Assembly: GCA_964489065.1 (NCBI GenBank)
Contig: CAZAXH010000007.1
Span: 74,672-138,671, forward strand
Length of the DNA stretch: 64,000 nt
Direction of reading: 5' to 3'
Source of the DNA: an uncultured Planctomycetales bacterium
Lineage (GTDB): Bacteria; Omnitrophota; Gorgyraeia; Zapsychrales; JANLHA01
The translations under genes were made by a program, and so were the position numbers. Positions 28,331 through 59,999 of this stretch are shown here, piece by piece. A model generated the notes under the pieces. It searched no databases, was not told the DNA's origin, and was given only the letters and a program-made list of their open reading frames with translations. The stretch's first letter is position 1; each line of letters opens with the position of its first letter.

Positions 28331-30253
28331 ATGAAAACATCTCACCGTCCGTTGGCAGATTCCGTTGAAATCCTGCATTCTTTCTTTTCGGCGGTTTTCC
28401 TTCCCTTTATTCTGGAAATCCCGGTCATCAGCCTTTTTTTCGGCACACAATCCTTAAAATTTCTCCTCCCGTTTATTTTTATGATTCTTTTGCCGGTTAA
28501 AATCGCCCTGTTTGCCGGGATATACGGCAGCCTGTCTATTCTGGCGTCGCAGCAAGAATATATCTTGACCGGCCCGCTTTTCCGGAGCCAAATCAAAAAA
28601 TTTTGGGGCCCTTATGCAGTCGTGCAATTTTTTCTGTTTCTCTTTCAGTTTGTTTCTTTCCTGGTCCGACCTTCCCTGGATTATACCTACTGGAACATCA
28701 TTCTGGAACCGGTCGCCGTCATGCTCTTTTGCATCTACATCCTCAAACGCAGTCACTTTGCCGGGGAAGCCGGTCCCCTCTTCAAGGTCAGGATTTCTCC
28801 CCGTTCCGCGATGCTGTTGGTGGGGCTCGTAGCCATGCAGATATTTTGTCAATTATTATTGAAACAGGGGAAACCGACGACGCCCCTGCCGGCGCTGGGG
28901 CTCTTGCTGGCCACGAAATATATTCACGCCGTCATGGTCATTTTCTTTAACCTGATTATATTCCAAGAGAGTTCCTACCACGTCCGACACCCTCAACCCC
29001 AAAAAGAACTCTTGCTGATCAACCCTTTAGGAGGAGGATCTATCCTCGAACTCTTAACATCCGTCATCCTGCGGTTTTACCCTCCGGTCTTTGTCGTTCT
29101 CTCGGCCCTGACTCCGGATGATTATACCGTCCGGAGTTTCTCAAGGGTTTTCTGGCGGTCCCGGTATGTCCGTCCAGGGCGGCTGGTGGCCATCACCTGT
29201 TTTACGAGCAACTGTTTTGAAGCGTACAAAATCGCCAAAGAATTCCGGAGGGCCGGATCCACCGTTATCATGGGGGGGCCCCATGTTTCCTTCGTCCCGC
29301 AGGAGGCCATGGAATTCTGCGACAGTGTCGTTGTCGGCGAGGTGGAAGGCATCTGGCCGGAAGTCGTCAGAGACTATGAAAATAACCGCCTTCAAAAAAT
29401 TTATGAAAGCCGCCCCGCGGACGAAACGGTTTACGAAACAATTTATCAAAAACTCCTCAACTCCCCTCCGGAAATCATCTACAACTATCTGGAAGCCAGC
29501 CACGGCTGTAAATTCCGCTGCTCTTTCTGCTGCGTCTCCGCCCTCTGCCAGGGCCGCGTGGGGCACAAAACGGTCGAACAGGTCACCGCCCTGATCAAAA
29601 AACTGCAAACAAAATACAAGATCATTGCTTTTCTTGACAACAACATCTATTCTGACCCGGCGTATGCCAAACAGTTGTTCACGGCCATGAAGCCCCTAAA
29701 AATCAAATGGATGGCCAATTGCAGCATCGATATCGCCGCCAATGAACCCATTTTAAAACTCGCCCGGGAAAGCGGGTGCCAGGCCCTGCTCGTTGGGTAC
29801 GAGATCAGCACCTATTCCTTCGAAAAAAAGCAGGGCGAAAAATTCGCTCTGGCCGAAAAGTATGTGGAATTGACGCGAAAAATCCAAAAGACGGGAATCC
29901 GCGTGGAAGGGCACTTCATTATCGGGTTTGATTCAGACCGGCCGCAAGATATCCTCAAATACTGGCAATGCTGCTTCCGGATTTTCCCCCAATGGACCAG
30001 CCTGTCGGTTCTAACACCCCTGCCGGGCACCAGGCTTTACCGGGACATGCTCTCCGAAGAACGTATCCTCAACCAAAATTGGAGGCACTACTCCTGCTAT
30101 TGGCCGGTGTTCCAGGCCAAACATTTCTCCCACACATTGTTGAGCTGGCTCCACCCGGTCCTCTTTTTTATTTTTCTCTTTACCACCTGCCGGGCGGGAG
30201 TGATCCTTCTTATCGTGCTGATCGCCACGGTTCTGGGAAGCCTGCTTCTCTAA
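28331..30253 (+). CDS. membrane-anchored B12-binding (class B) radical SAM enzyme, paralog 1
   Basis: ~200-aa 6-TM N-terminus; B12-binding region (..VAITCFTSN..IMGGPHVSF..); CKFRCSFC = CxxxCxxC; C-terminal TM. Confidence 0.8.
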   Translation: MKTSHRPLADSVEILHSFFSAVFLPFILEIPVISLFFGTQSLKFLLPFIFMILLPVKIALFAGIYGSLSILASQQEYILTGPLFRSQIKKFWGPYAVVQFFLFLFQFVSFLVRPSLDYTYWNIILEPVAVMLFCIYILKRSHFAGEAGPLFKVRISPRSAMLLVGLVAMQIFCQLLLKQGKPTTPLPALGLLLATKYIHAVMVIFFNLIIFQESSYHVRHPQPQKELLLINPLGGGSILELLTSVILRFYPPVFVVLSALTPDDYTVRSFSRVFWRSRYVRPGRLVAITCFTSNCFEAYKIAKEFRRAGSTVIMGGPHVSFVPQEAMEFCDSVVVGEVEGIWPEVVRDYENNRLQKIYESRPADETVYETIYQKLLNSPPEIIYNYLEASHGCKFRCSFCCVSALCQGRVGHKTVEQVTALIKKLQTKYKIIAFLDNNIYSDPAYAKQLFTAMKPLKIKWMANCSIDIAANEPILKLARESGCQALLVGYEISTYSFEKKQGEKFALAEKYVELTRKIQKTGIRVEGHFIIGFDSDRPQDILKYWQCCFRIFPQWTSLSVLTPLPGTRLYRDMLSEERILNQNWRHYSCYWPVFQAKHFSHTLLSWLHPVLFFIFLFTTCRAGVILLIVLIATVLGSLLL

Positions 30254-30882
30254 CCTGCCAAATGCGGTGACAGAGGCCGCTGTTGCCTTAAGCGGATCCC
30301 TTCATACACGACAGCCGTATTCAGCCCGTACTTGCAGGATAAATAGACCACACAAAAAACCAGTATACTGCGACCGACATCGGGCCAAGGCAATAAATAG
30401 CCGGCCAGGAACAATTTTCGCAGGCAATTATCCGACATGGATATCGCATCCACGAGAGACAGGATCCCGTAACGGCGGGACAACTGCTCGGCTATCTGAA
30501 AAAGACTCATCATCCGGAAATCTTCGGGAGAGAAATGATTTTTGAGCAAGAGAGAAGCCAAAAATACCAGGCGCTGTTTTTGAAGGTATCCGATGTATTG
30601 AAAAGCAATAAACAATCCTACAGCCAACAGAAACGGGAAAGGATTTCGGGTGACCCAAGAGAGGGCCGCAAAAACAATGGCTCCCAGGAAGACCGCATCA
30701 GCGGCCCGGCTCCAGTTTCTGTAAGTCGCGTATGGTTTCGCATGGGTAGCCAGATCGCGCCTAAAGACATCCTGAATTCGGCCGGAGCCAAAAAGATAAT
30801 GAAACCAGCGTCCGGTATAAAAATCGTAACGGATCGATTTCTGCAATGTTTCAAAACTACTGATGGGCTCCAAGGTCACCAC
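30250..30882 (-). CDS. polytopic membrane protein, convergent partner of radical SAM paralog 1
   Basis: 210 aa, GTG start; shares FSPE..L[FY]QI[AG]E..SLVD block with 48505..49143. Confidence 0.45.
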   Translation of the reverse strand: MVTLEPISSFETLQKSIRYDFYTGRWFHYLFGSGRIQDVFRRDLATHAKPYATYRNWSRAADAVFLGAIVFAALSWVTRNPFPFLLAVGLFIAFQYIGYLQKQRLVFLASLLLKNHFSPEDFRMMSLFQIAEQLSRRYGILSLVDAISMSDNCLRKLFLAGYLLPWPDVGRSILVFCVVYLSCKYGLNTAVVYEGIRLRQQRPLSPHLAG

Positions 30883-30951
30883 AAGAACTCCATTTCAAAT
30901 CAGGACTCGGCCCGTTTCCCAAACGGCCGGGCCTTTTTTTCAACCAATCCC

Positions 30952-31863
30952 TTACGGGAATGTGCAACGGTATTCGCTCTTTTCTGTAATTTTCATGGAA
31001 GGTGCAGCCGCCGTTGCCGGAATCTCAACAATCTTCTGGCTATTTTCCGAATGGATCATCATCGTGTCCGGCTCTAATATCCGGATTCCGAATCCCCTGA
31101 TTTTTAGCCCGGCCTTCATGGGATCCGGGCTAAGCTTGGCGGAAGGGTTCCGGCCCCCTGTCTGGCCGGCCGTTTCCAGATCATCCGCCTCCGTGGCATA
31201 ACGGAAAACAATCTTGACGCACTCCTGATCTCCGCATCGCTGTTTACTTTCGATTTTCGTACGAACATAATACACCGCCTTCCCCCCCGTGGGGAGCGGA
31301 TATTCCCTGGCATCAATCCACGCATCCCCCAGACGCACCTCCGTACCGACCAGGCCCCCAACACGGGACTCCCACTCCGCAGCCGCCTTGCTGGAGAGCT
31401 CTTGCACCTTAATCAAATTCATGAATGACTGGACCTTCTCTGCCGGAATTTTTTCCCGGATGTCCATTTCCAGATTCTCGTATCCAGACAAGGAAACAAC
31501 TTTCCCCTGAGCGTCCGCCTCGATGGAAACAACGCTTTCCTGAATCAACTGGGTCAAAGGGTCCCGGACAACATCCCCGTTACGTTTAATCACAACAGAC
31601 ACCGGTTCCGTAACAAATAAATACCCGCCGTCCTTTGTCTTTGTTATTTTTATCTCAGACACAACCGTCCCCTCGCTGATCTGCTGCCCGGCCATCCCCA
31701 TATCCATCGTAACATGGGAATACGCTGTAGCCTGATAATGGACACCCGATGGCGGGTTAAAACGGAAACGGATCTCCCCGGCCTGAACGTCAGCGGCCCG
31801 GGCCGCCAAGGGGCAGAACTGCAAAACCAGCCAAACCCATACCACGCAATGTATTTTCTTCAC
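30952..31863 (-). CDS. secreted hypothetical protein
   Basis: Signal peptide MKKIHCVVWVWLVLQFCPLAARA; no recognisable domain. Confidence 0.4.
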   Translation of the reverse strand: MKKIHCVVWVWLVLQFCPLAARAADVQAGEIRFRFNPPSGVHYQATAYSHVTMDMGMAGQQISEGTVVSEIKITKTKDGGYLFVTEPVSVVIKRNGDVVRDPLTQLIQESVVSIEADAQGKVVSLSGYENLEMDIREKIPAEKVQSFMNLIKVQELSSKAAAEWESRVGGLVGTEVRLGDAWIDAREYPLPTGGKAVYYVRTKIESKQRCGDQECVKIVFRYATEADDLETAGQTGGRNPSAKLSPDPMKAGLKIRGFGIRILEPDTMMIHSENSQKIVEIPATAAAPSMKITEKSEYRCTFP

Positions 31864-33784: not shown

Positions 33785-35890
33785 TTAGTCTAAGGATAAA
33801 GGCATTTTTTTATAAACCTGCAAAGCGTCCTCATAAAACTGGGTGGCGGCCAGGCCGTCCTGACGAAGCCCCCGCAAAAAAAGCTCAAATTTCCTTATAA
33901 CCGTTCTCGTCAAAACCCGCTCTTCGAGAGACAAAACAGTGTCTTCCGAAAAACGGCCCCCCAGCCGCATCAGGGCATCATGCGATTTCTTAAAATTCCG
34001 CTGATCCTCGACATAAAGCCAGGCCAGGTCCATATAGGCATTCGCCAGCTGACACCTCTCGTTCACAGACAGGACAGGGAGTTTTTCCATAATATGAACC
34101 GCCTGTTCATAACTCTGAATGGCCGGCTGGATGCTCCCCCGGATTTTATGCCCCCGGGCAGTCCCGGCCAAAAGACGGGCACGGATGCGCAGTAACTCGT
34201 CAGGATCCTGATTCGAGATAAGCCCAAGCCCCCTCTGATACAGGTCCATGCTCAAGGAAAAACCGCGGCTATCCTGCCATCCCGCCAAAGGGGTGATGTC
34301 GGTCGGAGGGGCGAAAAGGACGGAGGAGATAAATTCTTCCAGCAGGACATCCGCGCTCTCGGCATAATACTCGGCGGCTGTTTTTTTATTTTCAGAGGCA
34401 TGAGCATCGGCCCATTCCACCAGAGCCGTTGTGTAAAGAATCGACAAACGGTACTGCCGAAGGGATGCATACGTATGAACCAGAAAACGAAAATATTCGA
34501 GTTTCTCCGAGACGTCGTCCCCTAACGGCTGTTCCATCCGAAAAGCCAGCAACTGATTAACCCGGGAAATGGGCGGCCAAAGAACCGCCCGCATATCCTC
34601 CCGCGTCACGACAGGGCGGGCAACCGGACCCGGGCTGGGAGGAACCGGGGCGACGACCCCTGTCGTTCCAGACGGCAAAGTCGCCCGGGAAAAACGTTTT
34701 CGGAAAAAATTTTCCGTCATCGCCAGGGCCAATAAAACCAGCAGGCCGGCGAATACATAAAGTGCGACCGGCCTTTTACCCGGCATCAGGGCGGTCGCCA
34801 GATCATCCAAAGCCGTATGAGAAGATTCCCTGGGGACAAGGTGCGCCGAAGGGTCTCCATAGAGGACATAGGTGGCCCAGAAAATCATACCCTCCCCCGC
34901 GGACTCAAGCAGTTTCAACCGGGCCTCCCGGACAGCCGCGCCAACGGATTTCCCCCGGCTGATCTGTAGATAAAACTCCCGGGAAAATTGAGCAGCCACA
35001 TGGTCCGGGACTTCTAACAATGTCCCCAAAAAATGCTTAACCCCCGCATATAAAAAGGCGTTAGCGATACTGCAGAACGCCCGCTCCGTATCGGCAATGA
35101 CCATCTTAGAAGGCGCAACGCCGGCGGACTGACAGGCATTGGCAAAAACCAAAAACGGCAAAGGCGCACCGCCGCGCATCTGAATAATATCGACCGCGCG
35201 CAAAATCCCGTCATCAAGCTTCCATCCGCTTTTCACCGGATCATCATAATTATATTCATTATGTCCGGCCAGATGCAGGACATCATAGTCCCGCACATTC
35301 TTAACGACATAATCCGTGGTAATGCGTTTCAGTTTCGTCGTGACGCGGAACAAACTCTCCTGTTGATCAAGGGCCTGACGGATATTAAACGCTTCGGTCC
35401 TGGCCTCCGGGAGATCCCCCACAGGATCCGCCAGGACCAGCATCTTCAAAGGCAACTCGGCTCTCCGGGGAGGCACGGGGAAAGAAGGATTTTTTGTCCG
35501 CACCGAACGCCCCAGATTGTATTTCAAAGCCAGGAAATTCTTCCCGTCATGCAGGATTTCCCATGGAATCTGGATCAGCGTTTCATCCACAAGAATCATA
35601 ATGTCCTGGATATTCTCCTCCTCTAAACGGATTTTCACCCCGTCACTTAAAAGCTGATCGAAAAGCGCCCTCCCCACCTTTTGCAATTCCACGGCGAGGC
35701 CGGAGGCCAATGTCCCCGCTTCATTACTCCGGTTCATCAAACGGACGGCATCGCCGCATAACCGCTCCACCATTATTTTATTGAGCGGGATTTCATCAAA
35801 ATGGCGCATCGTGGAACTGCTCTCGTAAAGGCTGACCGTCAGAGAGGTCCGCGTCAGGATGACTTCTAAAATATGCGTAACGTTGATCAT
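33785..35890 (-). CDS. CHAT-domain (caspase-like) protease with C-terminal TM and TPR-like helical region
   Basis: ..VLHLAGHNEY.. and ..LVFANACQSA.. = His/Cys dyad of the CHAT domain; ATGA start overlap with anti-sigma gene. Confidence 0.6.
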   Translation of the reverse strand: MINVTHILEVILTRTSLTVSLYESSSTMRHFDEIPLNKIMVERLCGDAVRLMNRSNEAGTLASGLAVELQKVGRALFDQLLSDGVKIRLEEENIQDIMILVDETLIQIPWEILHDGKNFLALKYNLGRSVRTKNPSFPVPPRRAELPLKMLVLADPVGDLPEARTEAFNIRQALDQQESLFRVTTKLKRITTDYVVKNVRDYDVLHLAGHNEYNYDDPVKSGWKLDDGILRAVDIIQMRGGAPLPFLVFANACQSAGVAPSKMVIADTERAFCSIANAFLYAGVKHFLGTLLEVPDHVAAQFSREFYLQISRGKSVGAAVREARLKLLESAGEGMIFWATYVLYGDPSAHLVPRESSHTALDDLATALMPGKRPVALYVFAGLLVLLALAMTENFFRKRFSRATLPSGTTGVVAPVPPSPGPVARPVVTREDMRAVLWPPISRVNQLLAFRMEQPLGDDVSEKLEYFRFLVHTYASLRQYRLSILYTTALVEWADAHASENKKTAAEYYAESADVLLEEFISSVLFAPPTDITPLAGWQDSRGFSLSMDLYQRGLGLISNQDPDELLRIRARLLAGTARGHKIRGSIQPAIQSYEQAVHIMEKLPVLSVNERCQLANAYMDLAWLYVEDQRNFKKSHDALMRLGGRFSEDTVLSLEERVLTRTVIRKFELFLRGLRQDGLAATQFYEDALQVYKKMPLSLD

Positions 35891-36564
35891 GAAGAGCTTT
35901 CCAGCCAGAGATCAATCCCGGCTCGCGGCAAGGTGTTTTCTGCAATGATAATTTTATATTTCCCGGGGGTCATCCCTTCAAACATGACGCTCTCTCCCGC
36001 GCAATCCTTATCCTCCAATTCCCCCTCCTCATCCCAAAGAGTCACCCGGAAACGTTTCGACGCAGGCCAAGCCTGGCCCGGATTCAGGGTAACCCCCAAT
36101 GTTGAACGGTTATGCTCCCCGGCTGAAAGTTCTCCCCTCACTAAAAGGTCCCCAAATTTTTTTTGAAATACGGATGTGTGGCTCGCGCCCTTCCCTCCGG
36201 CCCTCAAAACATGTCCCGGGACGATCTGCGGACCGACCAGAATCTGGCCGGTTGTTTTCACCATCCGCAACACACCACGGGCGACAACCGCAACGACAAA
36301 AAGGACTCCGGGCCGGAGGCCCTGATGAACAAGGGTTTGGGCCGTTCGGGAAAGGCCCTCCGGGAGGGGAACAAACCCCTCCTTGTCCTGGAGCCGTTGA
36401 ATATCCATGACGGCACGCACATCTTCACGCAGACGGGTATCCCCGGCCATCAAGTTTTCCATCCTGTCCTTCTCTGCGGGTGACAGAAGACCCTGGGCAT
36501 AAGCGGCGATCCATTCATCGCCCACCCTGGCCCTTCTGTCGAAAGACTTATCTCTCACGGACAC
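35887..36564 (-). CDS. anti-sigma factor (membrane-spanning), cognate to upstream ECF sigma
   Basis: N-terminal anti-sigma-like helix (..WIAAYAQGLLSPAEKDRMENLMAGD..), central TM (VLFVVAVVARGVL), periplasmic tail. Confidence 0.5.
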   Translation of the reverse strand: MSVRDKSFDRRARVGDEWIAAYAQGLLSPAEKDRMENLMAGDTRLREDVRAVMDIQRLQDKEGFVPLPEGLSRTAQTLVHQGLRPGVLFVVAVVARGVLRMVKTTGQILVGPQIVPGHVLRAGGKGASHTSVFQKKFGDLLVRGELSAGEHNRSTLGVTLNPGQAWPASKRFRVTLWDEEGELEDKDCAGESVMFEGMTPGKYKIIIAENTLPRAGIDLWLESSS

Positions 36565-36586
36565 ATCCCTTCCTTCTCCTCCCCGG

Positions 36587-37192
36587 TCAATACATCAGGC
36601 TCTTGTCTTCGGCCATCCGTTTCATTTTTTTCAAAAGCCTCTGTTTACGGACGTAAAAACACGGCACGGAAATACCCAGCAAGCCGGCGATCTCCCTGGG
36701 TTTCATATTATCAGAAAAAAACATACGGTATAAATTGCGTTCCTCCTCACTCAAATCCGCCAAAAGAAGTTGCGCCGCCTCTTTTGAAAAAAAGCAGTCC
36801 CACCTCCGCCTGAAAACTTCTGCCGAAAGGGCGTCCAGAATTTCGGCGTTTTTAATCGGTTCAATCCGGTGGCTATACAGACCAGAAAAACGGCGGTGAC
36901 GGGTTCGCAGGAAATCGATGGTCTTCCGGATCACAACCGTCCTGAGATAATGGCGCAAGTGACAGCCGTTGCGTCCTTCATAAGCCCTGAGAATCGCATA
37001 ATCATTTTCCAGCAGGCAGAGGAAAAAATCATGATACAAATCCGAGAAGACTTCCGAAGAATCCTGATAAGCAAACCGGCGGAACGTCCGGAGGATGGAG
37101 TCGTAAATGAGGGGCGAAAACTGTTCGATAAAAATATCCCAACTTTGTTTGTCCCCCGAAAGACATTTCTTTAAAAGAGTATGATCGTCCAT
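36587..37192 (-). CDS. ECF (sigma-70 family) RNA polymerase sigma factor
   Basis: Region 2 (..FFLCLLEN..) and region 4 HTH (..REIAGLLGISVPCFYVRKQRLLKKM..). Confidence 0.85.
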   Translation of the reverse strand: MDDHTLLKKCLSGDKQSWDIFIEQFSPLIYDSILRTFRRFAYQDSSEVFSDLYHDFFLCLLENDYAILRAYEGRNGCHLRHYLRTVVIRKTIDFLRTRHRRFSGLYSHRIEPIKNAEILDALSAEVFRRRWDCFFSKEAAQLLLADLSEEERNLYRMFFSDNMKPREIAGLLGISVPCFYVRKQRLLKKMKRMAEDKSLMY

Positions 37193-37201
37193 CGGACCGG
37201 A

Positions 37202-38020
37202 TTACTTTTTCAAGGCTTCGTCCATTTCACGCAAATCATAAAATGTTTGCACATGATGTTCAGCCTGCATAAGCATATAATCAAGAACCAAATCATGACG
37301 GCCCGCGTAAACAGACACGCACGGCTCCTCCACCTCGTTCTGCGTTAACGGGTCATATTGACACGCAACATATCCTTCGGCTTCCAGGCAGGCGGTATCT
37401 TGCTCTTCCCCGTCTGGCGAGGCAACCTGAATATCGTCATAATAATAAATGCCGTTCCAATAGTTAAAGAATTCAATTTTATCCACCCGGGAAAGGTCAA
37501 AATCTTTGGGGAGCTGGCTGAATAAAATCATCAATTGGGTCCACTCTCCCGGTAAGGCTTTGTCAAGAGTCCAAATCCCGATCCCCTGTTCATGGTACAA
37601 ACCGTGATCAAAAAACTTTACCATCACTGTGTGGGCCCCGGGATGCATGGGTTCGGACCATATCCAGAATGTAAGACGGTCAAAACAAGCCGGGATAAAG
37701 TTCACATTATACGTCTGCGTCATGGACGCCACGCCGGTCCCTGATTGCAGAGCTTCTGCATCGGGGATGGCGACCCGCCAGGAATACTGACCGGAATGAA
37801 CCGGGTGCCCCTCCTGGGTCAAGGCCGCAGATGCCTCCCCAAAAGCCCAGCCATATTCCGGGATATCGGTATCAGAAGAGGTTTGGGGAGGAGTCCCGTT
37901 GGCTGGCTCGAAATCCTGGTACATCATCGAGGCCAAGGCATGCGACTGAATACACCCAACAATAATCAGGGGCAGCAAGACTGGGAAGACCCTATTTTTG
38001 TTAACACAAATTTGGAACAT
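37202..38020 (-). CDS. secreted hypothetical protein (first gene of ECF operon)
   Basis: N-terminal signal/anchor; W/Y-rich; no domain recognised. Confidence 0.35.
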   Translation of the reverse strand: MFQICVNKNRVFPVLLPLIIVGCIQSHALASMMYQDFEPANGTPPQTSSDTDIPEYGWAFGEASAALTQEGHPVHSGQYSWRVAIPDAEALQSGTGVASMTQTYNVNFIPACFDRLTFWIWSEPMHPGAHTVMVKFFDHGLYHEQGIGIWTLDKALPGEWTQLMILFSQLPKDFDLSRVDKIEFFNYWNGIYYYDDIQVASPDGEEQDTACLEAEGYVACQYDPLTQNEVEEPCVSVYAGRHDLVLDYMLMQAEHHVQTFYDLREMDEALKK

Positions 38021-39785: not shown

Positions 39786-39906
39786 ATCCGGACCGTCAAG
39801 AGACAAAAACGGAAAACGCAGGTTCAGCGCCCTGAACTTCGGGAAGGAAAAAATTAAGAAGAAAAAAGACATCCATTTATTCCAAAATTCCAGCCGAAGA
39901 GAATCA

Positions 39907-48504: not shown

Positions 48505-49143
48505 CTAACGAAAGTTCCGATAAAAAAACGGCTGATTCACGATAAACGAAACCCCGAAAAAAAGCGCGAAGAAGGCAACCTGCCTTAAAATGAAAATATT
48601 TATACTGGTAATGTAAGCGACCAGAAAAAAAGAAAACACAAGAGTAAACCGGTAAATTCTATCCAAGTGGTACATCGTGTCAACGAGAGAAGGAATTTTA
48701 TGCCTTTCACTATATATCTCCCCGATCTGATACAACGTGGTCTTGGCAAGGATTTCCGGGGAAAAATCCCGTTCAATAAAATATAGGCTGATATCGGCAA
48801 TGTGGCTCTTCTTGACTGTTAACGTCCTAAAGAAAAGAAACAAACCGGCCAACGCCGGCACGGCAAGGGCATAGCTCTTCATCTCGAAAGCCAAAGAACA
48901 TAAAGCACCCATGCCGATGCCAAGGCACCACAGCAGCATTTCACACCGCCGTATGGCCCGATAGGCGGATTGGATGCCCGGCAGGCCGTCGCTCCTCACT
49001 TTAAACGACGGCTGCAGAATCAGGAATAAAAACCACCGACTGACGTATTTGTCAACCAAAATCGTGCTTCTTAACCCTTCCCTTGTGCAAAGGGGTATCA
49101 TCATGTTCCGGTATCCGTGTGCGTAAATTGCCTGTTGCGGCAT
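48505..49143 (-). CDS. polytopic membrane protein, convergent partner of radical SAM paralog 2
   Basis: 212 aa; homologous block with 30250..30882 (FSPEILAKTTLYQIGEIYSERHKIPSLVD). Confidence 0.45.
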   Translation of the reverse strand: MPQQAIYAHGYRNMMIPLCTREGLRSTILVDKYVSRWFLFLILQPSFKVRSDGLPGIQSAYRAIRRCEMLLWCLGIGMGALCSLAFEMKSYALAVPALAGLFLFFRTLTVKKSHIADISLYFIERDFSPEILAKTTLYQIGEIYSERHKIPSLVDTMYHLDRIYRFTLVFSFFLVAYITSINIFILRQVAFFALFFGVSFIVNQPFFYRNFR

Positions 49144-51645: not shown

Positions 51646-53835
51646 ATGAGCGCAAAGACCATTACATTTTTCAGCAACAAAGGCGGGGAGGGGAAAACCT
51701 TTATCGCGGCGAACACGGCCACGGCGCTGGCTTTATCGAAACACAAAGTTTTACTGCTGGAATTAAACTTCCAGTCCGCTCATGATATTGACAAGATGCT
51801 TCACCTCCCCTGCCGTTACGGCCTGGTCAACATCATCAATCAGGTCGAAACGACGGACAATCCGGAACTGATCCGCAAAGTGGTTATCAACCACTCCAGC
51901 GGGCTGGATTTCTTGCCGACAATATTAAATACGTCTCAGATTTCCCATTTCTCTCCCGCTCAAATCAGAGCTTTTTTCAAGATCACCCGCGGCATGTACG
52001 ACTTCATTATTGTTGACGCGCCCCGCGCTTTCAGTGAAGCGCTTTTAACGGTTCTGCAAAACTCCAATCTTATTATTCTGGTTTCAACGCCCGATGACCT
52101 CGCCATTCATAAACTCCAAAGAAGCTTGGGGATGTTGAAACGGATGCAATTGCCCAACGACATGATTAAACTCGTCGTGAACCGGGCCTCCAGCCGCAGC
52201 GCCATGGATGACGAGGCCATCCAGAAACAGCTGGAAGTACCCATCCTGGCCCGCGTCCCTTCCGACGGAAAAACCGTTGGCCTGGCCTTGAACCGCGGAG
52301 TGCCTTGTGTGATGGACAGCCCTCACAGCGAAGTGAGCCAGGCCATAAAAAAACTAGCCGATGAGCTGAAACGGGATGACATCTTTGCTGAAGTGCTGGG
52401 GGGGCCGGCCCATGTTGACATGTCCCAGCATGTGAAACCCACCGAGAATCTGTGGGAAAAGCTGGGCGGTTCGCAATCCGGGCCGGACGTGACGCAAACG
52501 ATTGAAATCGACCAGGAAGATGAAGAGACCAAGTTAAAAAAAGAAATTCACGAAAAACTCATCCAGGTCATGAACATGGACCATCTGAGTCCGGAGGCCT
52601 TGCAGGATAAACAGCAAACCCAGGAACTCCGCAAAAAAGCTAACACGGTCGTTAACGAACTTTTAAAAGAAGCCCGCCCGGAAATGATACAAAAAGAGGA
52701 AGAACGAAAACGCCTGGCGCTGGTCATTGTCAGCGAGGCGTTTGGTTTGGGGGCCCTGGAAGAATTCCTGGAGGACAGCGAGATTTCCGATATTATGGTG
52801 AACGGCCAGCGGCAAACATTTATCGAAAAGAAAGGGAAACTGACCCGCACAGACGCGAAGTTCGTTTCCGAAATGCAAATGCGTTCGATTATTGACCGCA
52901 TTATTGCCCCGTTAGGCCGCCGCATTGATGAATCCACCCCCATGGTGGACGCGCGCCTCCCGGACGGCTCCCGCTTTAACGCGATCATCCCCCCCCTCTC
53001 TTTGACCGGGCCGGTGATTACGATCCGGAAATTCGGGCGGGAGCGGCCCACAGTGGATGACCTTCTGAATAAATTCCACAGCATCAACGAAGATATGCGC
53101 AATTTCCTGGAAGCGTGCGTTAAAGGACGGAAGAATATTATCGTTTCCGGAGGAACCGGGTCGGGGAAAACAACGCTTCTCAACATCATCTCCACCTTTA
53201 TCCCCGACAAAGAACGCATTGTCACCATTGAAGACGCTGCGGAACTCCGGATCAACAAACGCCACTGGCTCCGGCTGGAATCCCGCCCGGCCAACATTGA
53301 AGGGAAAGGCCGTGTGCCCATCCGGACTCTTTTTATGAACAGCCTGCACATGCGCCCCGACCGTATTATCGTCGGGGAGTGCCGCGGGCCGGAAATTCTG
53401 GACATGCTCCAGGCCATGAACACCGGGCATGACGGGTCCATGACCACCCTGCACGCGAACTCCACAAAAGACGTGCTCGTGCGCATGAGTTCCATGATCC
53501 TCCTGGCCGGCGTGGACCTCCCCATGCGGGCGATCAACGAAATGATCTCCACCGCACTGGACGTCATTGTCCATGTCAACCGTTTCGCGGACGGTACCCG
53601 GAAAGTCGTGGAAATCACCGAAGTCACAGGCCTGAACGAAGAACACTATTTGGAACTCAAGGACATTTTCCTCTTTAACCAGCAGGGGACCGACGCGAAC
53701 GGAACGATCCTGGGAGATTACGAAGCGACCGGCTACGTGCCGCGGTGTTATGAAGAATTTAAAGTCATGGGGATTGACCTGGATCCCGGCATCTTCAAAC
53801 CCAAATCAAAACCTTCCCCCCCGCCCCCCGTGTGA
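51646..53835 (+). CDS. fusion ATPase paralog: ParA/MinD-like + CpaF/TadA-like
   Basis: Same architecture as 49453..51630 (SNKGGEGKT ... GGTGSGKTT ... GHDGSMTTLHANS); 16-nt intergenic gap. Confidence 0.8.
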   Translation: MSAKTITFFSNKGGEGKTFIAANTATALALSKHKVLLLELNFQSAHDIDKMLHLPCRYGLVNIINQVETTDNPELIRKVVINHSSGLDFLPTILNTSQISHFSPAQIRAFFKITRGMYDFIIVDAPRAFSEALLTVLQNSNLIILVSTPDDLAIHKLQRSLGMLKRMQLPNDMIKLVVNRASSRSAMDDEAIQKQLEVPILARVPSDGKTVGLALNRGVPCVMDSPHSEVSQAIKKLADELKRDDIFAEVLGGPAHVDMSQHVKPTENLWEKLGGSQSGPDVTQTIEIDQEDEETKLKKEIHEKLIQVMNMDHLSPEALQDKQQTQELRKKANTVVNELLKEARPEMIQKEEERKRLALVIVSEAFGLGALEEFLEDSEISDIMVNGQRQTFIEKKGKLTRTDAKFVSEMQMRSIIDRIIAPLGRRIDESTPMVDARLPDGSRFNAIIPPLSLTGPVITIRKFGRERPTVDDLLNKFHSINEDMRNFLEACVKGRKNIIVSGGTGSGKTTLLNIISTFIPDKERIVTIEDAAELRINKRHWLRLESRPANIEGKGRVPIRTLFMNSLHMRPDRIIVGECRGPEILDMLQAMNTGHDGSMTTLHANSTKDVLVRMSSMILLAGVDLPMRAINEMISTALDVIVHVNRFADGTRKVVEITEVTGLNEEHYLELKDIFLFNQQGTDANGTILGDYEATGYVPRCYEEFKVMGIDLDPGIFKPKSKPSPPPPV

Positions 53836-53877: not shown

Positions 53878-54723
53878 TCATTTTTTACCGGGTTGAAATT
53901 TCCGGATAAGATTTCCTTCAAAACGCCAGTGCCATGGCTCATAAGCAATGCCATGGGTAGAAGATTTCGGATAAGACAGGACAAAACCAAACTGCCGGGC
54001 GTTTTTCAAAAGCCAGCGATATTCCTCCAAGGCTTCAAACTCGGCGGGGTCGTCTTTCCCATTAATCCCATCCCGGCTGATAAAATCAACCGCCTGAAAT
54101 TCAGGCGCGCCGTGTTCGCTATACCCGGGTAAAGCCACAAATTGAGCGGTCTCCCGGATCGAGTATCCGTGATTCCGCAAATAAAAAACAAACAGATATA
54201 ACTGATACGCGCTTGACCGGTATCCGGACTCAATCAGCAGGCGCTTCCCGATATCCTTTTCCATCTTATCCATCATCGCTGAATACTGCTGATAAACACG
54301 GGGAGGCAGAAACTGCGGCAAAAGCTCTCTTTCCTCCTTATCCGTACCTTCCTTCTTATGGTCCCGAACCTTGACCTTCTGGCCGGTGATCCGGACCATA
54401 TCTTCCTCTCCGGTCGAAATCCCCCGAAAGGGGATTTTCACATCAAGGTCCCGGGCGTTGAGCTTTTCGAATTGTTTTAAAAAAGACTTTTGATCCGCGC
54501 TTAAAGGAGCATAAAGTTCCTCAAAGGTCAATTTAGCCCGGGTTCTCATCCTGTCCCTCTGGATAATAACCGGCTCTAGGTCTGCGATCAGCCGCTTGAC
54601 TTTCTGAATATCAGGGTCAGAAAGCTTATCAAGATTAAGCTCTGCGCACACGGGGAAAGACAGCAGGGACAAAAAACAAAATAAAGGCCCAAAAAACAAA
54701 ACATAAATTCGGCGCATCTTCAT
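53878..54723 (-). CDS. D-alanyl-D-alanine carboxypeptidase, peptidase M15 (VanY-like), secreted
   Basis: Signal peptide; SxHxxGxAxD (SEHGAPEFQAVD) and EPWHWRF zinc-ligand motifs. Confidence 0.8.
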   Translation of the reverse strand: MKMRRIYVLFFGPLFCFLSLLSFPVCAELNLDKLSDPDIQKVKRLIADLEPVIIQRDRMRTRAKLTFEELYAPLSADQKSFLKQFEKLNARDLDVKIPFRGISTGEEDMVRITGQKVKVRDHKKEGTDKEERELLPQFLPPRVYQQYSAMMDKMEKDIGKRLLIESGYRSSAYQLYLFVFYLRNHGYSIRETAQFVALPGYSEHGAPEFQAVDFISRDGINGKDDPAEFEALEEYRWLLKNARQFGFVLSYPKSSTHGIAYEPWHWRFEGNLIRKFQPGKK

Positions 54724-54773: not shown

Positions 54774-55808
54774 TCAAGATCCTGTGCCGTTGTTCCATAA
54801 AACCGGCTTACTCTCAATTATCATCCGCCAGCAACGGTGAACACAGCGGTTCCGGTAATCCTCCGGGATCGTCTTGGGAGTCAATTCTTTCAAATCTTTC
54901 ACGGGAAGGTCGTCTAAGCGGGGAGTAAACCGCTGATGATTCGTGGAAAAAAAAAGCACAGCCCCCGGGGCCAGGACCCGAATAACCTTTTCCAGCAGGG
55001 CGGGGTGTTCGCGGTTAATATCAAAAGCCTGCCCGTGACGGCGGTCCCGAAAAAATGAAGGTGGATCTACAAAAGCGAGCGAAAAACGCCGGCCGGAACG
55101 GATGACTTTATCGAGGTACGCCCCCACATCGGATTGAACCAAAGAGTGCTGGGAGCCCCAAAGGCCGTTCAACTCAAAATTGTCCCGAGCCCATTTCAGA
55201 TAAGTGGCGGAGCGGTCCACGGTAACCGTGCTTTTCGCCCCGCCCAGGGCTGCCGCGCAGCTGAAAGTCCCGGTATAGCCGTACAGGTTCAGGAAATCCT
55301 TCCCGGCGGCGCATGCCCTTATAATCATACGGGTGTCCCGGTGATCGGGAAAAAGCCCGGTATCCAGGAAACCGTCCAAGTCCACTAGAAAGCGGAGGTC
55401 TCTTTCCTGCACCTGAATATGCGCTCCGTCCCGGCCCGTTTTACGGTAGCGCGGCTGTCCGTCCTCCCCGCCGGTACGGCGGCGCTTCAGGTGCACATTT
55501 TCAGAAGGAACCCCCAAAACCGCGGCCACAGCCGCGGCCATTTGAGGAAGCCATCGCGGCCCGGTCTGCCAGCGCACATATTCCCCCACGACCAGGTGGC
55601 CGGCGTACCAGTCGACCACCGCCCGCACCTCCGGGATATCCCAATCGTAAAGCCGGAAACATTCAATATTCTGCCGGGCAAAGCGCTTTCGCATATGCTG
55701 ATAGCGTTTCAGCACACGATTGGACAAAATTTCGGCGTGATGCCGGGTCTTTTCCGGCGTCACCGAGTTAGGCTGTGATTTCATAGGACAATTTCTATCT
55801 TGAGGCAT
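54774..55808 (-). CDS. class I SAM-dependent RNA methyltransferase (RlmI/RlmK-like)
   Basis: ..NLYGYTGTFSCAAALGGA.. SAM-binding and ..FVDPPSF.. DPPxF catalytic motif. Confidence 0.5.
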   Translation of the reverse strand: MPQDRNCPMKSQPNSVTPEKTRHHAEILSNRVLKRYQHMRKRFARQNIECFRLYDWDIPEVRAVVDWYAGHLVVGEYVRWQTGPRWLPQMAAAVAAVLGVPSENVHLKRRRTGGEDGQPRYRKTGRDGAHIQVQERDLRFLVDLDGFLDTGLFPDHRDTRMIIRACAAGKDFLNLYGYTGTFSCAAALGGAKSTVTVDRSATYLKWARDNFELNGLWGSQHSLVQSDVGAYLDKVIRSGRRFSLAFVDPPSFFRDRRHGQAFDINREHPALLEKVIRVLAPGAVLFFSTNHQRFTPRLDDLPVKDLKELTPKTIPEDYRNRCVHRCWRMIIESKPVLWNNGTGS

Positions 55809-55878: not shown

Positions 55879-56532
55879 TCACGTTGCCTTAGGCCCGTCA
55901 TCCAGCCGGGTCACTTTAAATTTCACTTTACCGCCGTCCGGGCACGTAATCCCGGTCTTACAATTGGGATCTTTTTCAAAACTAAATTTCGCGCCGAAAT
56001 TCATTTCAAATAAAACCGGAAACAATAAATGATACGCCGCGCCGCACATCCCCTCGGGCGTCCGCAAGCCTTTAACCTCCCATTTATCCCCGACTTGATA
56101 ACCGTACGAACACGTATTATCGCTATACTCCACTTCGATGAGCATCTTTTTAGGATTCGGGCCCTTGGGCTTCTCCTTTTGCGGCTCCACGACAACCCGG
56201 CCGTTTTCATCGAGCACCTCGACCTTAAAAGCCATCTTCCCGCCATCCGGGCAGGTCGTGCACAAAGATGCGGTGTTTTCCATAAACGGGAACCGGCCGC
56301 CGAAAGTGAGGGCGTGCATACAGGGGAACGCCGCATGCGCGATGGCCAGGCAGAAATGCTCCGGCGCGTGAGTAAAGTCATCCAGGATAAACTCATCCCC
56401 CACTTTATAATGGTGATAACAAAATCCATCGTCATTTTTCAAGACTGTAAATTTTAGTTTCGGGAAACAGGTCCTGGCCAGTTTCACATCCTTTTCTTTT
56501 TGCTCACAGGACATCTTGTGTTCACACATCAT
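55879..56532 (-). CDS. tandem-duplicated Cys-rich small-domain protein (TIGR04076-like)
   Basis: AGGGAGG RBS; two ~95-aa repeats each with C..Y.[HG]Y.VGD[EK][FW] and C-x2-5-CPDGGK motifs. Confidence 0.45.
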   Translation of the reverse strand: MMCEHKMSCEQKEKDVKLARTCFPKLKFTVLKNDDGFCYHHYKVGDEFILDDFTHAPEHFCLAIAHAAFPCMHALTFGGRFPFMENTASLCTTCPDGGKMAFKVEVLDENGRVVVEPQKEKPKGPNPKKMLIEVEYSDNTCSYGYQVGDKWEVKGLRTPEGMCGAAYHLLFPVLFEMNFGAKFSFEKDPNCKTGITCPDGGKVKFKVTRLDDGPKAT

Positions 56533-56616
56533 AACCTCCCTTGTTAACATCTCACGTCATGGTTGCAGACAGCGCGCTGACTTTGTGTTATAAAAATTCC
56601 AAGAAAGAACCCTAAT

Positions 56617-57105
56617 ATGGTATCATTAATTATCAACGAAAACAAAAATTATCGCAACGGGAATTGTAGCCGGGCCATGAAAAATTTCTTTATGTCTCCT
56701 TTCCAAAAGACTGACTTCGCTGAATATTTCAAAAAAGCCGATGAAAAAGGGAAATTCCTTCAGGCCTGGAAAAAACACGGGCTGGCCGTCCTAGAATCAC
56801 TCCAGATGAACCATAACCCGAATATCTGCTTAGATGGGGTTCACGAATACTACGCTCAACAAGCCCGGCCCCGGGATGCCGCCCAAATGATGGACCGAAT
56901 ATCAAATTTCCTCGAAGCCCGGATTAAATCATCCGCGTTATCCGTTCATTTTGAACTCTCCGCTGACGGGCCAAGTCTGTGCATTATCTGTCAGCGCCAG
57001 CACCGGACATGGAATGAAGGAGAAAGTTTACGGATTATCCGGGTTGAAGCCCATGATTTTCGGGGCTGTGTCAGCAGTAACGACTGGGTCGCGCATCTGG
57101 AATAA
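56617..57105 (+). CDS. hypothetical protein
   Basis: 162 aa ORF, no recognisable motif; start may be internal Met (MKNFF...). Confidence 0.3.
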   Translation: MVSLIINENKNYRNGNCSRAMKNFFMSPFQKTDFAEYFKKADEKGKFLQAWKKHGLAVLESLQMNHNPNICLDGVHEYYAQQARPRDAAQMMDRISNFLEARIKSSALSVHFELSADGPSLCIICQRQHRTWNEGESLRIIRVEAHDFRGCVSSNDWVAHLE

Positions 57106-57627: not shown

Positions 57628-58479
57628 ATGAAAAACTTAATAAAAACATTAGCAGTAACGGCATCAATCTTTTTGCTAGCCGCCCTTCCGGCTCAGGCAA
57701 GCGTGATCACAATCCCCAACAGCGCCTTAGTTTCTTCGACGCAATACTATACCGATATCATCGGCGGCGGAATAGGGGACGCGCTCATTATGACCGGCGG
57801 TGGAAATGCTGCCAACGTTGGATATTCCCGTAACGACGACGGCTTTAGCGGCCCGATCGATTTCGGGTATGGCCTTTCTTTTTTTGGCACAACATACACG
57901 CAATTCTACGCTAACAATAACGGCAACATCAGCTTCGGAAATGGCATTTCGGCCTACACTCCAGACGGCCCCCAGGGCGCCACACAGCCGATCATTTCAC
58001 CCTTTTTTGCGGATGTTGATACCCGCAACCTTGCCAGCGGTTTAATGTATTTAAGAAACGATACCCCCAACCAAACCATTATCACCTGGGATCAGGTCGG
58101 ATATTACGGTTCACACGCCGACCTTCTCAACAGCTTCCAACTCGTTGTCCGCGGTCCAGGCTACGACATCCCTTACGGCGAAGGAACCATCGGCTTTTTC
58201 TACAAAACAATGCAATGGGAAACCGGTGATGCCAGCGGCGGATCAAACGGGTTTGGCGGCTATCCGGCAGCCGTTGGTTTCGGCGACGGGTTAAATAACG
58301 GGGAAATTCTTGAAGGGTCCTTACAGAACGGCATTTCAGCGATCGTGAGCAACCACTATATCTGGTTTGACCAAAACCTGCAGCCAATTGTTAACCCGGT
58401 CCCGGAACCGGTCTCATTATTTTTATTCGGCAGCGGTTTATTAGGCGCAGGATTCATCAGACGCAAGATCAACGCGTGA
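57628..58479 (+). CDS. PEP-CTERM-sorted secreted protein with NIDO (nidogen-like) domain
   Basis: Signal peptide; NIDO-like ..FYANNNGNISFG..PFFADVDTR..; C-terminal VPEPVSLFLFGSGLLGAGFIRRK (PEP + TM + basic tail); GGAG RBS. Confidence 0.75.
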   Translation: MKNLIKTLAVTASIFLLAALPAQASVITIPNSALVSSTQYYTDIIGGGIGDALIMTGGGNAANVGYSRNDDGFSGPIDFGYGLSFFGTTYTQFYANNNGNISFGNGISAYTPDGPQGATQPIISPFFADVDTRNLASGLMYLRNDTPNQTIITWDQVGYYGSHADLLNSFQLVVRGPGYDIPYGEGTIGFFYKTMQWETGDASGGSNGFGGYPAAVGFGDGLNNGEILEGSLQNGISAIVSNHYIWFDQNLQPIVNPVPEPVSLFLFGSGLLGAGFIRRKINA

Positions 58480-58505: not shown

Positions 58506-58546
58506 AACCCCTCTGCGATTATATAATGGCAGAGGGGTTTTCTTTT
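58506..58546 (+). terminator. intrinsic terminator after PEP-CTERM gene
   Basis: AACCCCTCTGC-12 nt loop-GCAGAGGGGTT followed by TTCTTTT. Confidence 0.6.
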
Positions 58547-58574
58547 AGGACTAGAAGGAGGGAAATGCCCAGGA

Positions 58575-59999
58575 CTAAGGGACGAGCAACCCCTTTGTCA
58601 ACCGACTCACTAATACTGGCAGGATAAACGGCAAAGAGCCGGGTGAGGGATAATCCCTAAGGATACGGAATACCCGCTTGGGGTTTAAATAAAATCTCCG
58701 GTGGGCCTGGCGTTGACAGGAAAATAAAATTTCATCCGGGACATCGGACAGATTGCAGTGAATAGTCGCATATTCCATATCATCATAGCGAATCCCCGAA
58801 AGTTTCTCCGGGGTGGCACGCAGAACACGGCGATAGACATCGGTGTTGGGGAATGGGGTTACGGTAAAAAAAGATGTTGTATGCAGAGACGAATGGCAGA
58901 CGACATCAATTGTCTGTCGGATTTCGGATTCTGTTTCGGTGGGGAAACCCATCATGGAATAACCATTGCAGAAGACCCCATACGATACAGCAAGTTCAAC
59001 ATTTTTAAGAAACTTTTCAATATCCAAGTTCTTCCCGATCAGTTTTTGAATCCGCGGAGAACCACTCTCCAGGGAAAAACTACAGAAATAAAGCCCCGCC
59101 TCCACCAATGCGCACAATTCCTCTTCCGTTAATATATCAGTACGAACACCGTTGGGAAAAGAAAGCTTAAGACGAATATTTTTCCTCTTTAATAAATCAC
59201 AAAACTCAAATACCCGGTTATGGTTCAGATTAAAAATGTCATCCAAGAATTCCACGTCATTGATGTCATACATCTTTTGTAGATACTCTATTTCTTCGAT
59301 AATCCGGCCCGCGGAATGGAAACGGAACTTTTGCCCGAAAATACGATGACAGTAAATACAATTATACGGGCACCCCCGGCTACTGAACAAAGAGGCATAC
59401 CGGTTTTTAATGATGGAAGAAAACGATTGATGTTTCCAATAGGCGGGGAGATGAATCAAATCATAAGCCGGGAAAGGAATCGAATCCAAATCTTCTATAT
59501 AAAGCCGTCCTCCGGGGTTAGACACGATTTCTCCCTGGCTGTCCCGCCAAAATACACCCGGAATAGATGATAAATTCCCGTCACCGTCAAAACGGGCCTG
59601 GATGATCTCCTCAAAAGCCCTTTCCCCCTCACCGGGCACAGCCGCGTGGGCCACTGTTTTATGCAACGCCTTTTCCTCAAAAGAGGTCACATAACCCCCT
59701 CCCAGCAGTATCAAGGAACGGGGCAGGGCGGCATGAAGCAACCGCGTGAGATCAGGGAGATTATGGGCAGTCGGGATCATGGCGCTCAAGCCCACAACAT
59801 CAGGGTTACAATCAGCGATGGTCTTAACTAACCGCTGATTGGTGGAATTATCTAGCAACTGATCAATAATCCGCACGCTGGCTTGAAACTTGCTTCGAAG
59901 ATAGGCCCCCAGGTACATAATCCCCAACGGAGGGGAGATGGACTGGGGAACCTGGGCCCGGCGCCCGACATTAACCAAAACTATCTGTAACTTCTTCAT
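58575..59999 (-). CDS. B12-binding (class B) radical SAM enzyme
   Basis: B12-binding N-domain (..VVGLSAMIPTAHN..LGGGYVT..); CPYNCIYC = CxxxCxxC. Confidence 0.8.
   Translation of the reverse strand: MKKLQIVLVNVGRRAQVPQSISPPLGIMYLGAYLRSKFQASVRIIDQLLDNSTNQRLVKTIADCNPDVVGLSAMIPTAHNLPDLTRLLHAALPRSLILLGGGYVTSFEEKALHKTVAHAAVPGEGERAFEEIIQARFDGDGNLSSIPGVFWRDSQGEIVSNPGGRLYIEDLDSIPFPAYDLIHLPAYWKHQSFSSIIKNRYASLFSSRGCPYNCIYCHRIFGQKFRFHSAGRIIEEIEYLQKMYDINDVEFLDDIFNLNHNRVFEFCDLLKRKNIRLKLSFPNGVRTDILTEEELCALVEAGLYFCSFSLESGSPRIQKLIGKNLDIEKFLKNVELAVSYGVFCNGYSMMGFPTETESEIRQTIDVVCHSSLHTTSFFTVTPFPNTDVYRRVLRATPEKLSGIRYDDMEYATIHCNLSDVPDEILFSCQRQAHRRFYLNPKRVFRILRDYPSPGSLPFILPVLVSRLTKGLLVP

Follow-up and report, generated by a model that had tools for sequence, protein, structure and literature searches.

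Why should four genes for B12-binding radical S-adenosylmethionine (SAM) enzymes lie close together on a bacterial chromosome, interspersed with genes of the cell envelope? The question is raised by a 64-kb stretch of contig CAZAXH010000007.1, from an uncultured member of the Omnitrophota (the whole stretch is called the window here), in which the four genes, named rSAM1 to rSAM4, are found at 28331, 43086, 46526 and 58575. A sequence-only reading had listed them together with a GT-C glycosyltransferase, a tandem TIGR04076 protein, a PEP-CTERM protein, a VanY peptidase and a SAM methyltransferase, and had taken the whole for an island devoted to one modification pathway, assignable to no known one. 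Pfam and NCBIfam searches recovered every gene on that list. The comparative data give a different picture of how these genes belong together: we judge it probable that the four enzymes represent three unrelated class-B-type lineages on an ordinary chromosome rather than one pathway, and that the real feature of the region is a duplicated two-gene membrane module, formed by rSAM1 and rSAM3 each with a small membrane protein, which the sequence-only reading had missed.

The duplicated membrane module

All four proteins belong to the radical SAM superfamily, scoring 41-86 bits against PF04055 Radical_SAM (gathering score 29.5) and carrying the CxxxCxxC motif, and all four also exceed the gathering score of the B12-binding family PF02310, which makes them class B by domain content. 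The PF02310 matches of rSAM2 (55.5 bits) and rSAM4 (64.5 bits) are full length, and the PF04055 scores of these two are 75.5 and 86.3 bits; the PF02310 matches of rSAM1 (34.3 bits) and rSAM3 (33.0 bits) are marginal against a cutoff of 32.1 and cover model positions 54-120 only, the C-terminal half. rSAM1 and rSAM3 are paralogs with 41% identity over their full length, rSAM2 and rSAM4 are 20% identical, and a search with rSAM3 as query detected neither rSAM2 nor rSAM4 at E<1e-5. Judged by sequence, the four enzymes fall into three unrelated lineages (rSAM1/3, rSAM2 and rSAM4). Three of the genes, rSAM1, rSAM2 and rSAM3, each stand alone on the plus strand amid minus-strand genes.

None of these lineages matches a characterised family. 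Matches to NCBIfam equivalogs (HpnJ, BchE, HpnR, ApyD, PhpK and others) reached 16-141 bits against cutoffs of 251-775, the best scores being 70.8 bits for rSAM1, 99.4 for rSAM2, 85.0 for rSAM3 and 141.1 for rSAM4. The class B subfamilies PhpK/Sden_1168, KedN5 and BzaD likewise stayed below their NCBIfam cutoffs, as did the families of the methyl-coenzyme M reductase glutamine methylase, of AprD4, of the ladderane enzyme (TIGR04072) and of peptides made by ribosomes and modified post-translationally (RiPPs; TIGR03975). With every NCBIfam score under its cutoff, no enzyme of the four falls into a characterised subfamily. On this point the sequence-only reading, which saw no known pathway to assign them to, was right, and the outcome that it had named as its refutation, each enzyme in a distinct well-characterised subfamily, did not arise.

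We define the module as a gene for an enzyme of ~630-650 amino acids (aa) with an N-terminal domain of multiple transmembrane (TM) helices, followed tail-to-tail by a gene for a ~200-aa protein with four TM helices and the motifs RWF and TLYQ..E....SLVD. This definition fits both copies in the window (Table 1), with hidden Markov model (HMM) scores of 879 and 966 bits for the enzymes and 186 and 210 bits for the partners. The stop codons of rSAM1 and partner copy 1 overlap (CTAA, 4 nt), a 26-nt gap separates rSAM3 from partner copy 2, and the two partners are themselves paralogs (28% identity, E = 3e-11).

We surveyed one genome per GTDB species, kept 77 distinct loci (numbered with the prefix L) and ran the enzyme and partner HMMs on all of their open reading frames (ORFs). 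GTDB species genomes hold at least 348 relatives of the enzyme, with several family copies per genome (at least five in chromosome OY759724.1). The record titles of nearly all 77 loci name Omnitrophota or Omnitrophica, the exceptions being a dozen metagenome-assembled genomes (MAGs) labelled 'uncultured Planctomycetales/Planctomycetia' and one labelled Elusimicrobia. Among long-form arrays the partner lies immediately downstream in 51 of 62, always tail-to-tail (51/51), and the coding sequences overlap by 4-53 nt in 27 of these 51 pairs. Short relatives of ~440-470 aa, which have no N-terminal TM domain, are never accompanied by the partner (0 of 17 complete ones; Fisher p = 3.9e-11), and no split N-terminal TM domain was found as a separate gene beside them. 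Some arrays place two or three tandem enzymes with one common partner (L002/L014, L029, L047 and L050), and the MAG sequence JAIORP010000096.1 (L057) encodes two natural partner-enzyme fusions: one of 847 aa (2541-5084), in which residues 3-202 are the partner and 214-839 the complete enzyme, and one of 865 aa (8001-10598) in the same order, at 2-200 and then 232-862.

Enzyme and partner also diverge together. Over 49 pairs, enzyme identities correlate with partner identities at Pearson 0.86 (Mantel p = 0.001), the correlation below 50% identity is Spearman 0.71, and orthologs of each window enzyme copy carry the orthologous partner. Because enzyme and partner co-diverge and orthologous pairs stay together, the module duplicates and evolves as a unit. 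Across ~75 loci the partner is the only widely recurrent neighbour of the rSAM1/3 family, and no envelope gene recurs with it. A RiPP or other peptide-modification cluster was considered and rejected: within 1.5 kb of the modules these loci share no conserved ORF of 25-79 aa, and TIGR03975 scores far below its cutoff. The existence and linkage of the duplicated pair, a TM-bearing radical SAM enzyme and its partner, are strongly supported, and the two-gene membrane module is undescribed and almost confined to Omnitrophota.

Unlike ordinary class B enzymes, rSAM1 and rSAM3 begin with ~230 residues that form multiple TM helices, and their C-termini are hydrophobic too. rSAM1, whose orthologs are 93% (L026), 81% (L022) and 58-59% (L075) identical, consists of a multi-TM N-domain, a Rossmann/B12-like domain, the radical SAM core and C-terminal TM helices. 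An AlphaFold2 model of rSAM3, built from a 30-sequence alignment (predicted local distance difference test (pLDDT) 82.9, predicted template modelling score (pTM) 0.83), shows the chain beginning with six TM helices and continuing with a Rossmann domain of five strands (235-366), the radical SAM barrel and a C-terminal helical hairpin at 607-643 that supplies two TM helices. The cluster cysteines C398, C402 and C405 are invariant across the family, and also conserved are C336, the motif GGPH with H324, and two residues of the C-terminal TM helix, T624 and G629. Foldseek against the PDB matched the soluble part only, to AprD4 (E = 3e-11), MgmA, TsrM, CysS and TokK and then to MiaB/RimO, and a profile search of PDB sequences with the rSAM1/3 family returned AprD4 and MgmA only; the N-terminal TM domain contains no known domain in Pfam (E<=10) or NCBIfam. 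More than 1855 homologs of rSAM3 were found, and where source names are given these are Omnitrophota or Omnitrophica; the genes are now annotated merely as 'B12-binding radical SAM', 'YgiQ' or hypothetical. A literature search returned no description of the family or of any polytopic membrane radical SAM enzyme, and the enzymes of this superfamily are, as far as we know, regarded as soluble or peripheral.

The partner is modelled by AlphaFold2 as an all-helical protein with four TM segments (pLDDT 84.4). Its conserved loop reads TLYQIGEIYS..Y.IPSLVD.IY.LD, with L137, Q139, E142, S152 and V154 invariant. Foldseek found no match to the fold in the PDB (best E = 4), and the sequence belongs to no family in Pfam (E<=10) or NCBIfam. 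The family is small and compact, with 253 cluster representatives at 50% identity among 1.84e9 proteins and lengths of mostly ~200 aa among the 150 representatives listed. Next to partner copy 1 a secreted protein is encoded (Table 1) that is 74% identical in L022 and 31% identical in L032, where it holds the same position beside the partner gene of a different paralogous module; its relatives form a five-locus cluster among the neighbours.

rSAM2, rSAM4 and the surrounding chromosome

rSAM2 is a soluble class B-type enzyme of a separate lineage. Its ORF opens with a TTG at 43038, and relatives keep as start the ATG at 43086. L004 carries an ortholog with 85% identity. In L003, the 93%-identity relative, the gene has suffered an internal deletion of ~1.3 kb (window 43219-44524) between intact flanking genes, which leaves a 44-codon stub (7863-7997) and the 3' end. 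We read this remnant as a recent gene loss, an assembly artefact being less likely; rSAM2 is dispensable in this sister lineage. Elsewhere, in L008, three paralogs stand in tandem at a distance of 3 kb from another module, and rSAM2 is 30% identical to a Spirochaete enzyme that adjoins an rSAM4-family gene. A metagenome scan with rSAM2 returned only three 85% relatives and one 25% match, and no new context.

rSAM4 represents the third lineage, also soluble and of class B type, with homologs of 52-59% identity across phyla (Thermodesulfobacteriota, Spirochaetes, Hydrogenedentes and Phycisphaerae). Four of the seven contexts examined (L082, L089, L090 and L091), from Thermodesulfobacteriota, Phycisphaerae and two further metagenome contigs, show these relatives beside GT-C genes (PMT, PMT_2, Dpy19 or YfhO). 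The pairing with PMT_2 occurs twice in L090, where the first pair overlaps by 17 nt, and the pair in L091 overlaps by 20 nt; GT2 or GDSL(-lipase) genes are often near as well. The link between radical SAM and envelope genes drawn by the sequence-only reading thus has some truth at the family level, for rSAM4 relatives in other phyla, where the contexts suggest a role in modifying glycans or polyprenyl-sugars and look like an uncharacterised radical SAM and GT-C pairing worth its own study. rSAM4 in the window and its 75%-identity ortholog in the Omnitrophota relative L081 have no adjacent GT-C, GT2 or GDSL gene, and the window GT-C shows no similarity to those beside rSAM4 relatives. Directly upstream of rSAM4, on the same strand and after a 29-nt gap, AsmA-like and DUF1318 proteins are encoded (60028-61753, minus strand) in an arrangement that we take to resemble E. 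coli ydbH-ynbE-ydbL; this linkage was not seen at L081.

The region is ordinary, vertically inherited Omnitrophota chromosome. The G+C content is 0.44-0.54 along the entire 64 kb with no step at the borders of the rSAM region, the window contains no tRNA, and no integrase, transposase or other mobility gene was found among the window genes scanned against Pfam. The top protein matches bear Candidatus Omnitrophota or Omnitrophica names. Gene order from ~24 to 57 kb is common to a ~81%-identity relative, JAKQKX010000065.1 (L022 and L004), and the right-hand part (~35.9-57.1 kb) is syntenic also in L003; across this block rSAM2 is the sole variable gene among the syntenic relatives. A genomic island is rejected on the flat G+C content, the absence of tRNA and the gene order common to relatives. 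At ~60% identity, OY759724.1, a complete chromosome, has ~54 kb between its rSAM1 ortholog (L075) and its rSAM3 ortholog (L005). The density that had pointed to a modification pathway exceeds chance modestly: against a local background of ~0.61 extra class-B-like radical SAM genes per 32 kb (1.15 Mb of Omnitrophota DNA around relatives), three or more extra genes have P = 0.024. This P value was estimated post hoc from a biased sample, and the duplicated module accounts for some of the excess.

Besides the genes in Table 1, the rSAM region encodes (by Pfam) CorA, a CBM11 protein, a CHAT protein, FIST and hybrid histidine kinase proteins and a double-receiver response regulator, together with DUF1318 and AsmA-like proteins; a chemotaxis operon lies within the first 24 kb of the window, a flank without any rSAM gene. 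The GT-C gene sits in a minus-strand run alongside the FIST and hybrid histidine kinase genes, has no link to any window rSAM gene and is kept in L003 despite the loss of rSAM2 there. The SAM methyltransferase matches only generic SAM-methyltransferase families (PF10672 and PF03602), which include rRNA methyltransferases. The tandem TIGR04076 gene has a counterpart in the 60%-identity genome OY759724.1 that adjoins a third long-form paralog of the module enzyme, without a partner (L037, 9059-11905); in the window (compared over 55879-57105) its place is taken by an ORF of 162 aa that is unrelated to it, together with the PEP-CTERM gene and rSAM4.

Table 1. Coordinates of the module, the radical SAM genes and neighbouring features in the window (M, module; E, enzyme; P, partner)
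Feature	Position	Strand	Description
Module copy 1 (M)	28331-30882		rSAM1 (+) and partner copy 1 (-)
rSAM1 (E)	28331-30253	+	640 aa; motif GCKFRCSFC
Partner copy 1 (P)	30250-30882	-	210-aa helical membrane protein, tail-to-tail with rSAM1
Secreted protein	30952-31863	-	303 aa; immediately upstream of partner copy 1, same strand; weak DUF6263 match, E = 0.056
GT-C glycosyltransferase	38157-39938	-	PMT_2, 28.4 bits against cutoff 26.1
rSAM2	43086-44720	+	544 aa; motif GCPLRCTFC
Lipoprotein	45907-46353	-	148 aa; divergent from rSAM3
Module copy 2 (M)	46526-49143		rSAM3 (+) and partner copy 2 (-)
rSAM3 (E)	46526-48478	+	650 aa; motif GCKYHCHFC
Partner copy 2 (P)	48505-49143	-	212-aa four-TM protein, tail-to-tail with rSAM3
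ParA/MinD-CpaF (T2SSE) fusion ATPases, two in tandem	49453-51630, 51646-53835	+	Pfam; divergent from partner copy 2
VanY	53878-54723
SAM methyltransferase	54774-55808		PF10672
Tandem TIGR04076 protein	55879-56550		two repeats
NIDO and PEP-CTERM protein	57628-58479
rSAM4	58575-59999	-	474 aa; motif GCPYNCIYC

Next to module copy 2, the two ParA/MinD-CpaF fusion ATPases are 52% identical to each other. The same fusion is encoded within ~4 kb of family members in several independent lineages (L013, L018, L063, L069 and L074); at the short-form loci L063, L069 and L074 the ATPase gene is tail-to-tail with the radical SAM gene, and in L069 (11192-16034) it is followed by secretin and RcpC, a Tad operon. 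No TadB/C, secretin or pilin genes lie beside the ATPases of the window. The ATPases may be associated with the rSAM1/3 family.

Several further observations concern the flanks of the enzymes. On the minus strand upstream of rSAM1 (23602-28171) are genes for DUF1848, tetratricopeptide-repeat, SET-domain and saccharopine-dehydrogenase-like proteins and for spermidine synthase, a block that has remained with the rSAM1 ortholog in relatives as distant as L075 (58-59% identity). A minus-strand run at 33785-38020 comprises, in transcription order, a secreted 272-aa protein, a sigma factor of the extracytoplasmic-function type, a 225-aa protein of no family and a 701-aa CHAT protein, after which come the CBM11 protein and CorA; the run is kept down to the 60%-identity relative L075. 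The lipoprotein gene divergent from rSAM3 belongs to the close lineage only (83% identical in L001, 98% in L003, absent in L002). An Rfam scan of the window gave a single match, a c-di-GMP-I-GGC riboswitch aptamer (RF03167; 45713-45794, minus strand; 62.7 bits, gathering score 59, E = 2e-12), directly past the terminator-like hairpin that follows the lipoprotein gene and ~80 nt upstream of the double-receiver response-regulator gene (44827-45633); neither a cobalamin riboswitch nor any other RNA element controlling the rSAM genes was seen in the scan. A promoter and terminator scan of the window gave counts no different from those in shuffled sequence.

Proposed action of the module and rival explanations

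The module most likely carries out radical chemistry on a membrane-resident substrate. The partner and the eight TM helices of the enzyme may assemble into one complex of ~12 TM helices, whose catalytic domain and conserved partner loop are predicted to face the cytoplasm because the partner termini are positively charged, the TM counts are even and, in the fusions, the partner C-terminus is joined to the enzyme N-terminus. There the [4Fe-4S] cluster would cleave SAM reductively, and the 5'-deoxyadenosyl radical would attack an unactivated C-H bond of a substrate that might slide into the active site from the side, out of the membrane; the best candidates are a lipid tail and a polyprenyl-linked intermediate. 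Since genomes hold several paralogs, and tandem arrays of two or three enzymes share one partner, the paralogs may act at different positions or on different substrates. In its most specific form, the proposal would be that the complex is a new intramembrane radical enzyme that methylates, cross-links or tailors membrane-lipid tails in situ, with one paralog per position, an idea we put forward tentatively and consider to be on the unlikely side.

A number of observations weigh against this picture. Lipid-synthesis genes are absent from the conserved neighbours at the ~75 loci, and ~15% of long-form genes are missing an adjacent partner. Strict convergence is odd for subunits of one complex: conserved prokaryotic gene pairs are usually co-directional or divergent, so the convergent orientation may carry regulatory meaning, and antisense or mutually exclusive regulation could be involved. 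The recurrence of the ParA-CpaF ATPase nearby in several lineages hints at a different functional context, and the rSAM2-family genes near a module in L008, together with the local class-B excess (P ~0.02), leave room for a loose functional neighbourhood. Use of cobalamin by rSAM1/3 is doubtful, because the closest match in both sequence and structure, AprD4, binds none (PMC12931638) and the PF02310 match is marginal and partial; the Rossmann domain may carry cobalamin for a methyl transfer or, like that of AprD4, no cofactor.

The pathway originally proposed, in which all four radical SAM enzymes would act with the GT-C, VanY, PEP-CTERM, TIGR04076 and methyltransferase proteins in modifying the envelope from one island, could appeal to that excess, to the synteny of the whole block in the 81%-identity relative, to the linkage of the rSAM4 family with GT-C genes in other phyla and to the rSAM2-family genes 3 kb from another module in L008. 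It is contradicted by the three unrelated lineages, by the single-gene units that three of the four rSAM genes form on the opposite strand and by comparative synteny, with rSAM2 deleted in the closest relative and the rSAM1 and rSAM3 blocks separated by ~54 kb at 60% identity. No envelope gene recurs with the module, the window GT-C is unrelated to those linked with rSAM4, and neither base composition nor any sign of mobility marks an island. The comparative data largely refute this reading, which we now regard as highly improbable. A narrower proposal keeps the module and changes the role of the partner, which would be the protein substrate: the enzyme would modify an invariant loop residue, as MgmA and Mmp10 do on methyl-coenzyme M reductase, and in tandem arrays a single partner would receive several marks. 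Third among the structural matches is MgmA, which C-methylates glutamine, and the loop holds an invariant Gln among other invariant residues; arrays of two or three enzymes with a single partner and the tight co-divergence agree with this as well. However, partner presence tracks the TM domain of the enzyme perfectly, for which intramembrane assembly is the more natural explanation, a stable fusion of a substrate to the enzyme N-terminus would be unusual, and a modified partner would serve no evident purpose; we consider a substrate role unlikely.

The module might instead work with a Tad-type secretion or pilus system, of which the adjacent ParA-CpaF ATPases would be part, with Flp-like pilins embedded in the membrane, or another Tad substrate, as the proteins that it might modify prior to export. 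The ATPase genes near family members in the window lineage, L013 and L018, the tail-to-tail arrangements in L063, L069 and L074 and the secretin and RcpC genes of L069 speak for such a link, but it is seen at only ~10% of loci, and the absence of TadB/C, secretin and pilin genes beside the window ATPases and of a conserved small ORF flanking the modules makes it very unlikely. Least probable of all is a regulatory or conflict system (toxin/immunity or defence) whose two products would be kept at a certain ratio by the antisense overlap. Strict convergence (51/51), frequent 3' coding overlaps, high copy number and diversification of the family inside one phylum could be explained that way; the genes are nevertheless syntenic and vertically inherited outside any mobile-element context, and the fusions argue for joint action over antagonism. 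A search for anti-phage defence systems with PADLOC gave only generic radical SAM matches to PDC-M51A (24-41 bits) and none for the partner.

With radical chemistry on a membrane-resident substrate as the preferred reading, the module matters as a new architecture, a class-B-type radical SAM enzyme in an eight-helix membrane domain with an obligatory four-helix partner, in a family with >1,800 database homologs and several copies per genome, in a phylum known almost wholly from MAGs. Its clean bioinformatic definition makes it a concrete target for heterologous expression, lipidomics and cryo-electron microscopy, and the L057 fusions are useful constructs for structural work. If lipid tails are indeed the substrate, Omnitrophota would possess a family of modified lipids not yet assigned, and the module genes could serve as candidate markers for orphan modifications of bacterial lipids that are found in anoxic sediments and sludge. 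The locus also carries a caution: in genomes rich in the superfamily, a local pile-up of B12-binding radical SAM genes should not be taken for a single pathway before comparative synteny has been consulted.

Comparison with known enzymes

AprD4, a radical SAM 1,2-diol dehydratase (PDB 6FD2), is the closest counterpart of all four enzymes in their soluble part, by sequence and structure, with E-values against PDB sequences of 2.8e-11 for the rSAM1/3 profile, 1.5e-20 for rSAM4 and 6.7e-9 for rSAM2 (the last two by phmmer). It shares the succession of a Rossmann-like N-domain and a radical SAM barrel, and is among the radical SAM enzymes whose Rossmann-like domain binds no cobalamin (PMC12931638). 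It differs in being soluble, in acting on an aminoglycoside and in having neither TM domains nor a membrane partner, and identity is only 16-18%. The cobalamin-dependent methyltransferases MgmA/QCMT (9CCB), TsrM (6WTE), CysS (9N1B) and TokK (7KDY) have the same two-domain architecture (Foldseek E = 7e-10 to 2e-6) at 13-18% identity, but are soluble and act on peptides, proteins or small molecules, and the B12 domain of rSAM1/3, for its part, aligns with no more than half of the Pfam model. The methylthiotransferases MiaB, RimO and MtaB, which also combine a Rossmann-like N-domain with a radical SAM core, are more distant (Foldseek E = 4e-6 to 2e-3, weak NCBIfam matches); their substrates are RNA or a ribosomal protein, and rSAM1/3 has no TRAM domain and not the three-Cys motif of their auxiliary cluster, C336 being the only cysteine conserved in its N-domain.

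The nearest analogues in concept are lipid-modifying class B enzymes, which perform radical chemistry on unactivated carbons of membrane lipids: HpnJ, HpnP and HpnR (hopanoids), GrsA/B and Hgm (ring formation and methylation of glycerol dialkyl glycerol tetraethers) and the ladderane radical SAM enzyme TIGR04072. Omnitrophota genomes have been reported to encode homologs of further enzymes that modify lipids, the radical SAM enzymes Mss and Hbs and also ElbD (PMC11868695; 10.1101/2023.10.20.563219), and for the archaeal lipid radical SAM enzyme Tes the predictions of TM helices are inconsistent (PMC8941075). HpnJ is the top NCBIfam match of rSAM1, rSAM2 and rSAM3, yet its scores of 70-129 bits against a cutoff of 578, and those of TIGR04072 (46-95 against 360), are so far under the cutoffs that the window proteins are not members of either family; HpnP, GrsA/B and Hgm are not among the NCBIfam matches. 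We know of no polytopic protein among HpnJ, HpnP, HpnR, GrsA/B, Hgm, the ladderane enzyme and Tes. Unlike the rSAM1/3 enzymes, none of the lipid-modifying class B enzymes comes with a dedicated membrane partner.

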